DNA of 64,000 bases from Eledone cirrhosa (GCA_964016885.1 OZ024745.1:120528001-120592000); one strand, 5' to 3'. Numbered from the stretch's first letter, positions 22,976 through 54,776 are shown. A program made the numbers and translations. Notes: generated from the sequence alone by a model not told the origin.

Positions 22976-25261
22976 TTGTTAGCTCTAAGCAGGAATGACA
23001 AAAATCATAAAATGGAACTAAAGGTAACTAACTGAGGTAGGGAAAATGGTTCCTGATTGGAATCTATCCTCATGTTTAGGATTTAATGCAGTTGTTTTTT
23101 TTTAGAGAGTTTAAAAGAAAAAAGCCCAACAGAAAATGTGAAATGATAAAACAAGGACAATATTGATTTCAAATTTGGACATGAGGCCTGAAAATTTTTT
23201 GGAAAGAGCAATGTTGATTAAATCAACTCCAGTATTTGACGGGTACTTTGTTTTATTGACCCCGGAATAATGAAAGGCAGTGTTGATCTTGGTGGGATTT
23301 GAACTCAGAATGCAAAGAATCAGAACAAATACAGCAATGATATATTATCCGACAGTCTATTAACCTCTACTTGATTACTTGATTACATGTAATTATAGTT
23401 AGGAATGAGGTATGGAAATATTAGGTATGGCACAAAATGAAAACTTACTCATTTCAGAAATACAGGGTTTGCTAATGTGTAAAGTAATGTGTAAAGTAAT
23501 GTGTAATGTGTAAAATAACTAGTTATATAAAAATGAACACACAACAATACAGAACTACTCACCTAATTTGTAGAATTATAGAAAAACTGATAGCAATGGC
23601 ATTGTAGAGAGGGTTTAACCCTTTAGCATTTACATTACTCTATATTTACTGTTGTATTTTCGCAGTAAAAGCTTTACTTCACATAATTATCTCACATAAT
23701 ATCAAATCTATGAGATTTTGATATTATTTAGAGAACAATACCTTAATATCAGTAAGGGTGGATGGTTATGGCCAGTTTGAACGGAAAGAGGTGGGAGAAT
23801 TCTGGCCAGATATGGCCGGTTTAAATACGATGGAGTTAAGTGAATTGGTGAACAATCACTTAATGTTTTACAATAAAACATTTTTTTTAAAGATCAGCTA
23901 AACACATTTCCATATACACAAATTCATAATTGAAAAAACAAAACATGTCAATGACAATACATTTCAAAAATGTCTTAAAATAAAATTTGTAAATTAGATT
24001 TTAAAAAACATATACAGATATCAAATATAAATATATTGTGTAAGCAATAAAGGCAGTCTATGATGTAAAGGCATAACACATAAAACTAACATCAAAAACC
24101 TACAAGAAATATCTACAAATAGGCACTAGTTACACACAATAGTTAAAAAGAAGGAAATGCTTGACTGATAAAAAGCCATTTTGAAGAGGGGGATTTGTGC
24201 AAAGTAGTGCATGTGAGTGAGTGTAGATGTGTGTGATATTCTAAGAAGAAAAAGCAGTGTCCATAGCTTTATGGGTTATCCTAAATATTGTGATATTAAT
24301 AAATGTTTCTACTTTTGTCACAAGGCCAGCAATTATCCCAGTACATTACTGGTACTTTATTTTATTGACCCTGTAAGGATGAAAGGCAAAGTTAACCATG
24401 GTGGGATTTGAACTCAGAACGTAAAGAGCCATAACTCTATGCTGCAAAGCATGCTGTCTGATGCTCTACCAATATTGCCAATCCACCAGAGAGGTGAGGA
24501 TGATTGAGGATGAATTGCAATAGTTGGTTGAAAAGACTGACAAGAAAGGAGATCGAAAGAGATGCAGTTATGAGGAAGAAGGATTGAGCTACATATTTCA
24601 GGTAGAATTTGAAAAGAAATTGTGCATAAGGAGAAGTGATTGTAAGGAGTTGTTCTAAGGGGGAAAAAACTGACAAGGTCAACAGGTCCATAGAGAGAGA
24701 ATGCAATGCCTAAATGGGCTAATGGTTCATGATTGAAGATACCAACAATTTAATTGGTATGGAGTTAATAGTTTAGCCCTTTAGCGTTTACATTATTCTA
24801 TATATACTATTGTATTTTCATGGTAAAGGCTTTACCTAACATAATTATCTCACATAATATCGAATCTATGAGATTTTGACATTATTTATTTTAGAACAAT
24901 ACCTTGACATAAGTATGAGCAGCCAGATACAGCCAGTTTAAATGCTAAAGGGTTAAATTCAGCTGAGAAAAATATCAAGTTGATATATATATATACAAAG
25001 TCACACAAATATACGTATAGTAATATTAATAAATGTGAAGATCCTGTTAAGGGTGAAAGTAGCGATTCTTTGCTTAAACTTTAATCTGTTATCCTAATAA
25101 ATGTATATATATATATATATATATTAGAAAGTGAGGTTTTTTTTACAAAATGAAAAATAACCGAGGTGTCCTACACGAGTGAAAGTATAAAGAAAAAGAG
25201 ATGAAATCGAAAATGCAACTGGAGTCTTATTTTTTTTAAAAATATATATATTTATTTGGTT

Positions 25262-25299
25262 CCTTTACCGGTTTCGCAGTTCTTCTGCTTTTCAAAAGG
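25262..25299 (-). ncRNA. Minimal type I hammerhead motif, U3-A8 core variant
   Basis: Minus strand cctt-TTGAAAA-gcag aagaa ctgc-GAAA-ccgg-TA-aagg; all three stems pair perfectly. Confidence 0.7.
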
Positions 25300-25510
25300 T
25301 GAGTTGAGATGGAGGGTCTGTAGTTTTTCTCACAGTTGCATTTTCGATTTCATCTCTTTTTCTTTATATATATATATATATATATATATATATATATATA
25401 TATATATATGTGTTAGGTAATTCCGAAGGAAAAGCAAAGGAAAAAAGAGTGCTCTATGTATAGAACAGAGCTATTTAATTAGATAGTGAACAACACAAAA
25501 TATAACTACT

Positions 25511-25575
25511 TCATTACGAAAGGTTTCTGTATCCCAGACAATATCAATACACGTCTGGATCGGTCATCAGACAGA
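25511..25575 (-). ncRNA. Hammerhead-like core inside a fold-back element
   Basis: Minus strand CTGATGA-cc-gatccagac...gtctgggat-aca-GAAA-c-ctttc-GTA. Stems I and III are weak. Enclosed by inverted arms 25473-25506 and 25579-25610. Confidence 0.45.
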
Positions 25576-25624
25576 GATGTTATTTTGTGTTGGTCACTTT
25601 CTAATTAAATATATAAATATATAT

Positions 25625-25883
25625 CAGGGGCGAAGGTCTGTGCATGTGTTATAGAATCGTGAGTTGATCAATTGCGTCGATTGAAGCAAGCAGAATTTTG
25701 ACTGCTTACTAAAACGTAGACTCAAAAAGATAACACACACACACACTAGATAACACTACATGCGGCTTTGACCGGGAGGGTCATTTAGGAGGAGGGGGGG
25801 GGGGGGGGGGGGCTGCACAGCCCCACTTTCCACCATGGCGATTGGACTGCATGCCCTGCTTTCCAGGTTACCCTTTGCCACTG
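25625..25883. mobile_element. Short TIR element inserted in (TA)n
   Basis: Termini CAGGGGCGAAGG / CCTTTGCCACTG; internal G19 run. Confidence 0.55.
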
Positions 25884-53899: not shown

Positions 53900-53948
53900 G
53901 CACTACCTAAGGTTTCAAGGCCCAATATTGACCATATCTCCAGAATGT
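53900..53948 (-). ncRNA. Degenerate hammerhead motif
   Basis: Minus strand CTGGAGA-tat-ggtc aatattg ggcc-tt-GAAA-cct t agg-TA; stem I poor. Confidence 0.45.
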
Positions 53949-54026
53949 TACAGGGATCAAAATTGTGACCTAATATTATGTATATATATATATATATATA
54001 TATATATATATATATATATATATACT

Positions 54027-54617
54027 ATGTCAGGTCACTCGAGTGCTACTGGTAACATGTAACCCAGTACAACCTGTCGCATGGTCAGGTCGTCGGCAAC
54101 TAAACTGGCAACCCTACCAAGTTTACTTGGTGAGGAGGGTGATTTTGGACACCCTGCAGGACAAAAAACAAAACCTGACAAAGGGCGGAAGAACTCATAA
54201 GAGTCAACGGCCATCCAAAAATGTGTAAATATGTATATACACTTGTACGTATGTATATATATGTATATGCGCTGGGACACAGAAATAATCGGGCTGGATA
54301 CCCGATCGCGCGGTTAAACCACTGGGAGTGAAGGACCCCTAGCCTTTGTCAGAGCATTCTTCTAGAAGGCAACTCAGGAAACTGGGATAACTCCGACATA
54401 AAACCTGTGGCTCAGTAGTTACCGATGATGTTGATCTTTTCTTCTTTTCGGGTTATAGCTACTGTTGCTCAGAGAGTGGGACTGGCTCAGTGCACAGTCT
54501 TTCCTCACTTTAAAAAAAATCTTCGCGCTCAGGCATTGCACGATAGAATTAATTAATAATTACTAATAATGGTATATCATGCAATGGCCATACTTGATAA
54601 CGAGGGGGCAGCCATCA
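54027..54617 (+). mobile_element. Non-autonomous RTE-related element (structured 5' head plus RTE-like 3' end); copies 28849-29420 (+), 26362-26775 (-), 3' half 46530-46825 (+)
   Basis: Three copies share the same 5' boundary next to (TA)n. Related 3' ends encode KSLAGLKSH remnants and end in ggcc(a/g)tact.ga.aacgag..ggcagcca.c plus a simple-repeat tail. Confidence 0.7.
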
Positions 54618-54738
54618 TATATATATATATATATAAAGAAATTCGAAGTTTGAAAGCCACGACAATGTGGGTTTGGACGAAGAATAATTAAATCTTAAGA
54701 AACAGGGCTTGTTTTTTTTATCTTAATTTATTCATATA

Positions 54739-54776
54739 TCCTGATATTTTGAGATTAATATCTCTTCTTCCGAGGA
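54739..54776 (-). ncRNA. Degenerate minimal hammerhead motif
   Basis: Minus strand tcct-CGGAAGA-a-gaga tattaa tctc-AAAA-ta-TC-agga; two core substitutions, stems intact. Confidence 0.5.

Follow-up and report, generated by a model that had tools for sequence, protein, structure and literature searches.

What brought eight hammerhead-ribozyme-like motifs, each beside a TA repeat, into one short part of the Eledone cirrhosa genome, and do they belong to one element or to many? The window analyzed here is a stretch of 64,000 nucleotides (nt) on one strand, 5' to 3', from a 3.0 Gb assembly (GCA_964016885.1 OZ024745.1:120528001-120592000; coordinates count from its first letter). An initial annotation, made from the sequence alone, had interpreted the motifs as a diverse set of non-coding, TA-targeted elements, Penelope-derived or retrozyme-like. 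Our analysis indicates that they are hammerhead-type sequences in eight separate, abundant families of known kind, namely Penelope-like elements (PLEs) and a non-coding parasite. We put at about 0.8 the probability that all eight families were inserted into (TA)n by PLE enzymes through paired priming, with the non-coding family served in trans. TA targeting, the Penelope link and the likeness to retrozymes stand from the earlier description, but "non-coding" is right only for the motif at 26179 and possibly for those at 25511, 29877 and 36424.

The eight positions and strands proved correct when checked in the window, and the families are labelled accordingly as A (25262), B (25511), C (26179), D (29877), E (36424), F (46331), G (53900) and H (54739). 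Their features are as follows.

25124..25334, minus strand: family A main arm, a 210-nt copy of the pseudo-long terminal repeat (pLTR) or leader of a full PLE, bounded by a fixed 5' start and, at (TA)n, by the long 3' end
25262..25299, minus strand: family A hammerhead, a U3-A8 core variant with stem II of 4 bp and a palindromic stem III
25333..25368, plus strand: family A inverted second arm, truncated, terminating at the short 3' site
25413..25580, minus strand: family B main arm, with a hammerhead-like motif at 25511-25575, a fixed 5' end 13 nt ahead of the core, and the long 3' end
25581..25612, plus strand: family B inverted arm, truncated, terminating at the short 3' site
25912..26338, plus strand: family C, 427 nt out of a retrozyme-like unit of 485 nt, with a (TA)n run on either side and 99.5-100% identity to the youngest arrays
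26179..26262, plus strand: family C hammerhead whose core is perfect; cleavage is predicted between 26256 and 26257
29815..29927, minus strand: family D, decayed and 5'-truncated, from an element of about 250 nt with a fixed 5' end; the hammerhead at 29877-29927 is mutated in the window copy
36243..36590, no single strand: family E two-arm insertion, the left arm inverted with the long end, the right arm (plus) with a hammerhead at 36424-36539 and the short end
46245..46450, plus strand: family F 3' end, with a minimal hammerhead at 46331-46363 (G8A in the window copy)
53866..53974, minus strand: family G 3' end, which probably belongs to a Hydra-clade element; stems II and III kept, 5' core absent
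54637..54831, minus strand: family H pLTR-like copy, with a hammerhead at 54739-54776 (U4G; G12A in the window copy) and a short 5' fold-back

Repeat families and their hammerhead cores

Each motif is a member of its own interspersed repeat family, and the case for hammerheads rests on these families. The descriptor, a type I hammerhead with at least 4 pairs in each of stems I and II, a palindromic stem III and at most 2 core mismatches, returned 28 rows across the window and recovered five of the eight motifs (25262, 26179, 36424, 46331 and 54739), missing 25511, 29877 and 53900. Measured against 250 block-dinucleotide shuffles of the window, the excess of motifs depended on stringency: the loose count did not stand out (5 versus a mean of 2.28, with 15 of 250 shuffles reaching 5), but the strict counts did, with three motifs at no more than one core mismatch (0/250 shuffles reaching three) and one at zero mismatches (0/250). 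Permitting the U3-A8 variant post hoc gave seven matches, three of them false (39587-39619), and a maximum of 4 in 200 shuffles. The association with TA repeats holds, all eight motifs lying 0-86 nt from a (TA)4+ run as compared with 27% of random segments; the corresponding chance (0.27^8 = 3e-5) has to be read with the possibility that TA neighbourhoods were searched first when the motifs were picked. The motifs are also, as annotated, not copies of one repeat: a single repeat in eight copies is ruled out by shared similarity that never exceeds 20 nt. Chance motifs are ruled out for the set by the family-level cores, although the loose descriptor count lies within the shuffles.

First-look searches of the assembly gave candidate places numbering 3726 for A, 2410 for B, 1417 for C, 1220 for D, 3664 for E, 2391 for F, 1791 for G and 1122 for H; these are not copy numbers, since 40 were scored per family and the A query also included TA and B sequence. 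A 31-mer from the 3' region of A had 5367 exact matches across the genome, and the short end of C joined to TA had 334; reversed controls had 0. In family alignments, built from the 14-19 closest loci each and biased towards the window copy, the core pattern recurred in other copies of A (18/19), B (12/14), D (5/14), E (10/14, allowing C at U4), F (10/14) and H (7/14, allowing any base at U4), and D kept GAAA in 20 of the 27 copies shown. The window copies of A and C are intact; those of B, D, F and H fail their own family's pattern, and the canonical first box is restored in other copies of D and F. The core defects of the window copies mostly reflect decay, and most of these copies are probably decayed and inert. 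The family A core pairs U3 with A8, a covariant variant described in Schistosoma PLEs (PMC4209133). Position 4 of the core is mostly C in E copies and mostly G in H copies, and a relative of H beside a coding frame carries the canonical first box. For the motif at 53900 the family does keep a hammerhead core, but the CUGGAGA box originally chosen sits inside the loop that a long stem II closes. The true 5' core lies about 45 nt further upstream, ahead of that stem, and is missing in the window copy; exact CUGAAGA occurs at this site in 5 of 17 other arms, with near variants in several more.

Insertion anatomy

In every family examined there are two fixed 3' ends, separated by 60-160 nt and each abutting (TA)n. 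The insertions sit in (TA)n, frequently head-to-head, with one fixed 3' end per arm. For family A, the 40 regions that take in the first 53 of the 5367 matches, which all lie in the first 37 Mb of C1 and were located with an anchor common to both ends, held 66 arms and 23 two-arm insertions, and 23/23 of the latter paired a long with a short end, a result with a probability of 5e-8 if the ends were independent. For family C, 25 of 26 head-to-head insertions paired a short with a long end (one short end being fixed by the anchor), and long-end arms ran into (TA)n in 24 of 24 cases. Some A and C junctions carry small overlaps or palindromes. The inverted arms noted earlier are real (33 nt at 25262, 31 nt at 25511 and 25 nt at 36424) but do not represent the terminal inverted repeats of some small element; these fold-back arms, given as 19-36 bp, are extreme truncations of the second arm of head-to-head insertions.

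Three further observations concern the same kind of insertion. At 25124-25620, families A and B and a ninth family crowd into 600 nt, each occupying a TA run that another had left, with TA runs acting as landing pads. The ninth family is itself abundant, two-ended and TA-flanked, present at 13175-13325 as a two-arm copy and at 25038-25107, and has a partial hammerhead core (a first box with A at position 4, a short stem II, and GAAA) in which stem I is not clear. Outside the window, at L021:8266-8415, there is another two-ended, TA-flanked family with 22 matches among the loci examined, in which a GAAA box precedes a CUGAUGA box and a likely stem II partner stands about 60 nt before GAAA; it may be a permuted hammerhead.

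The coding parent of family A

A genome search for GIY-YIG nucleases gave 10596 candidates, of which 150 were scored. Family A lay 3' of a GIY-YIG frame in the same orientation at 3 of the first 30 loci and at 6 of 20 longer loci picked for long frames. An open reading frame (ORF) with reverse transcriptase (RT) plus a GIY-YIG domain at its C-terminus, flanked by hammerhead-bearing pLTRs, was found at L172, L173 and seven more loci. L172 has the layout pLTR-ORF-pLTR with an open stretch of 938 codons, matches to RVT_1 (E 2e-6, just below the curated cut-off) and GIY-YIG (E 2e-6, above the cut-off), and a CX4CxxC linker, CGRSNCGTC, that fits the CX2-5CxxC found before the nuclease in Neptune/Nematis; its start codon lies about 25 nt beyond the long end of the solo copies. 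A PDB sequence search with the family A protein gave no match. These predicted frames show family A to be the pLTR of a full PLE with RT, zinc-finger linker and GIY-YIG nuclease, the linker being of Neptune type, and the motif at 25262, annotated as a non-coding element, is instead at the end of a protein-coding one.

Among the 66 A arms, 26 start between -2 and +11 of the base 30 nt 3' of TATAAAA, 21 reach further up into the 3' region of the parent and 19 stop inside; two of these 19 end exactly at the cut site, a weak post hoc hint. Many A copies begin 30 nt past a TATA box, as though the mRNA leader had been their template.

Ahead of the RT region of the same parent, on the minus strand at L172:6570-6610, a T run is followed by AG. 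This looks like the frameshift site drawn for some PLEs.

The family C unit

Family C is a unit of 485 nt with 38% GC and a tandem period of 485 nt. Its best matches are 100% identical and lie in arrays, often as two diverging arms, with up to 10 units per arm, an intact hammerhead in every unit and 99-100% identity among units. Sixty regions held 92 arms; they took in 61 of the 64 short-end matches that come first in genome order among the 334 (three others were left out). These were arms that were 75-100% identical to the young unit. All arms stayed inside the unit, 28 of 92 were longer than one unit and without fixed phase, and none of the 92 continued into a PLE frame; nor was there any sequence match between C and the PLE pLTRs found here. 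The young unit has one 113-codon frame, which single-base indels cross in other subfamilies. Helices I-III were paired in 97.1% of 555 cells from 37 distinct copies, with three stem pairs changed on both sides (reached by 2 of 500 shuffles), and the unit folded as a circle scored 2.7 standard deviations better than 60 shuffles. With a closed 485-nt unit, tandem arrays, compensatory stem changes and no PLE frame, the reading of 26179 as a retrozyme-like non-coding element is upheld. As far as genomic copies tell, family C is non-LTR-retrozyme-like, with short non-coding tandem units of low GC, no LTR and one type I hammerhead each.

The possibility that C arms owe their 5' ends to hammerhead cleavage, hinted at by five ends at 130-141 in the top-scoring loci, was rejected on the genome-order loci (1/73). 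Separately, 16 of the 92 arm 5' ends fall at unit positions 426-475, a post hoc observation that possibly marks transcription starts or stall sites.

Coding partners of the other families

Family H is 77% like a sequence 400 nt 3' of another RT and GIY-YIG frame, and its tail matches the frame start of that element; H is a relative of a coding PLE end. A parent of H read through at L192 was considered and rejected, the left-arm frame there having no H end after it. Copies of family F run up to 684 nt further 5', and 2 of 26 extend 660-684 nt into a nuclease-like peptide; this peptide looks like a PLE nuclease end, which database checks did not confirm, and F is possibly a PLE end. Family G continues in one locus (L120) into a decayed peptide that was likened by eye to the C-terminus of the Hydra nuclease (CxxC and CxH around a conserved E and N; PMC8557442 supplement), and G is probably the end of a Hydra-clade PLE. 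Families B and D have fixed 5' ends, and the 27 D copies shown share a single start position.

Mechanism and alternative explanations

The patterns described above are consistent with a single mode of insertion. A GIY-YIG nuclease would cut both strands of a TA repeat, and each cut end would prime reverse transcription on RNA, one at an inner (short) and the other at an outer (long) start site. The two complementary DNAs (cDNAs) would then join by their 5' ends, which would give the head-to-head shape, the one-sided tail and the arms of the initial annotation. Priming in the first pLTR of the mRNA would copy just the leader back to the transcription start, and many short solo copies would result. 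Family C would use the PLE enzyme in trans. The C hammerhead would process multimers into monomers, allowing circles, and since reverse transcription passes through the cut site the template would be uncut or circular. In vitro, AT-rich DNA is cut by a PLE protein that also extends both strands, with two internal start sites marking the limits of the tail (PMC11167929). It is an evenly balanced question whether this amounts to an unstated general rule of PLE insertion, with two primings per event, at the inner and outer site and one per strand, with mass production of leader-only copies by first-pLTR priming, and with C obeying it too. If true, C would be a minimal natural substrate for the PLE enzyme.

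Several results weigh against this account. In the window, Rfam gave zero hammerheads among 103 matches to E 10, and the motifs fold no better than shuffles (z +1.17 to -1.76). At the family level, U4 is not conserved in the cores of E and H subfamilies. Searches for a coding partner gave none for B, C, D or E, and no PLE frame adjoins B (15 loci), D (45 loci) or E (15 loci), upstream or downstream, with a partner query set for these three of 14 proteins from the Eledone cirrhosa genome alone. Pfam, two homologue searches, Atlas and a representative search gave blank results for the G peptide and blank or spurious ones for that of F. In C, the covariation comes from a few related older copies, which inflate it, and the 5' ends show no concentration at the cut site (1/73 among the arms reaching it). 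Cleavage, RNA circles and transcription start are predictions from genomic sequence, and the in vitro work reported no start-site difference between strands and a hammerhead unnecessary for insertion (PMC11167929).

An alternative that bears on activity rather than origin is that several motifs (the window copies of B, E, G and H) are dead look-alikes and that no hammerhead here cuts RNA. This is unlikely, though less so than the other alternatives: the window copies of B, D, F and H fail their family pattern, that of G has no 5' core, and weak cleavage is known for minimal PLE hammerheads. Furthermore, 8 of 9 predicted Xenopus retrozymes failed to cleave (10.64898/2026.07.22.740005). It sits poorly with the intact window copies of A and C and with pairing kept across C subfamilies in 97% of cells.

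The main rival to the insertion mechanism, an older model that is quite improbable here, accepts the same elements but would derive the head-to-head shape from fold-back self-priming, with an antisense template, and the solo copies from recombination or deletion, as proposed for rotifer PLEs. Self-priming has been argued from palindromes at inverted junctions together with bidirectional promoter motifs (PMC3846280), and the small overlaps and palindromes at some junctions here, with the 5' fold-back of H, would suit it. It would not explain why the two arms have different fixed ends (23/23 and 25/26), each against (TA)n, or why arms are of unrelated length with 5' ends that do not match, and recombination between pLTRs would retain upstream pLTR sequence rather than stop at a single fixed base behind the TATA box. 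Very improbable indeed is the idea that the arrays of C are satellites made at the DNA level, for which a PLE end was the seed and which grew by unequal crossing-over or slippage with a passive hammerhead: local tandem amplification is favoured in 10.64898/2026.07.22.740005 and would fit array units that are 99-100% identical, but the arrays are dispersed, have scattered start points, two fixed ends in (TA)n and two diverging arms, and 28 of 92 arms exceed one unit without fixed phase.

Host gene and other features of the window

The motifs had been placed inside the introns of one gene, a setting that was not confirmed. There are a few small exon-like stretches with splice-site-like ends on the minus strand (60015-60070, 41542-41625 and 8599-8687), which hint at a gene; one homologue search with such a stretch gave none, and read alignment gave no splice joints. 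At 26887-27718 there is a tRNA-headed short interspersed nuclear element in a 416-nt, 99% inverted pair centred on a (TA)100 run, either tail-to-tail or an assembly fold-back. At 48456-49318, long inverted (CTA)n/(AGT)n tracts face each other, and after them a tandem array with a 27-nt unit extends to 50495.

Comparison with known systems

The elements themselves are expected, as PLE hammerheads and retrozymes are known from many animals and (TA)n-targeting octopus PLEs are already catalogued. The initial annotation knew of no catalogue of such elements in this lineage. That view needs qualification, as an octopus PLE with a hammerhead and (TA)n preference, Hydra-1_Obim, is already catalogued (PMC8557442 supplement), but these particular families were not found in print. 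No paper was found on them or on a strict long/short split within a literature that excluded most subscription journals and Repbase. A one-sided tail, an inverted copy, solo pLTRs and a pLTR TATA box and initiator have been described qualitatively before (including in PMC3846280), and both PMC8557442 and PMC11167929 call it an open question how PLEs come to form tandem and inverted copies whose tail is one-sided. Among cephalopod and other surveys, 235 Rfam hammerheads are reported in giant squid (PMC6962438); the available text of PMC13282606 covers 31 recently active Penelope-like families without the words hammerhead, ribozyme or retrozyme; and the main text of 10.64898/2026.07.22.740005 names no mollusc among 35 species, though its supplements may list relevant families.

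The hammerheads resemble the minimal palindromic type I hammerheads of metazoan PLE pLTRs (PMC4209133) in core, short stem I, palindromic stem III and an extra base after A9, as well as in the U3-A8 variant, the many families per genome and the prevalence of single copies or close opposite-strand pairs. Unlike those, B, C, E and G here have a long branched loop II, and U4 variants are fixed in E and H subfamilies; no octopus-like genome is among those in the available part of that source. As coding elements, the families share with the endonuclease-positive (EN+) PLEs of Neptune/Nematis and the Hydra clade, including Hydra-1_Obim, the RT with C-terminal GIY-YIG, partial tandems, an inverted 5'-truncated copy, a tail at one end, a pLTR with TATA box and initiator, (TA)n targets and a pLTR hammerhead (PMC8557442, PMC3846280). 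Tails of 30-40 nt are given there versus about 60-160 nt here, where leader-sized solo copies dominate. By its linker motif, family A is provisionally likened to Neptune/Nematis. Poseidon of Anolis in vitro (PMC11167929) has the same two internal start sites defining the tail, an AT-rich target, extension of both strands and a dispensable hammerhead; leader-only copies are not described in the available text and its start sites do not differ by strand, whereas here the two sites are split between arms. The value of the present families is mechanistic, as thousands of young copies with a strict arm split, a near-intact parent and a 485-nt passenger offer a direct test.

Family C is like the metazoan non-LTR retrozymes (PMC7229834; 10.64898/2026.07.22.740005) in being a self-paired, non-coding tandem unit of 38% GC with one type I hammerhead per unit, found beside PLEs. 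At 485 nt it is longer than the 170-400 nt first described (PMC7229834) and within the 51-972 of 10.64898/2026.07.22.740005. Unlike described metazoan retrozymes, family C has plain PLE-type paired ends and head-to-head arrays, and presents a putative retrozyme with PLE-made ends, which goes beyond mere sequence likeness.

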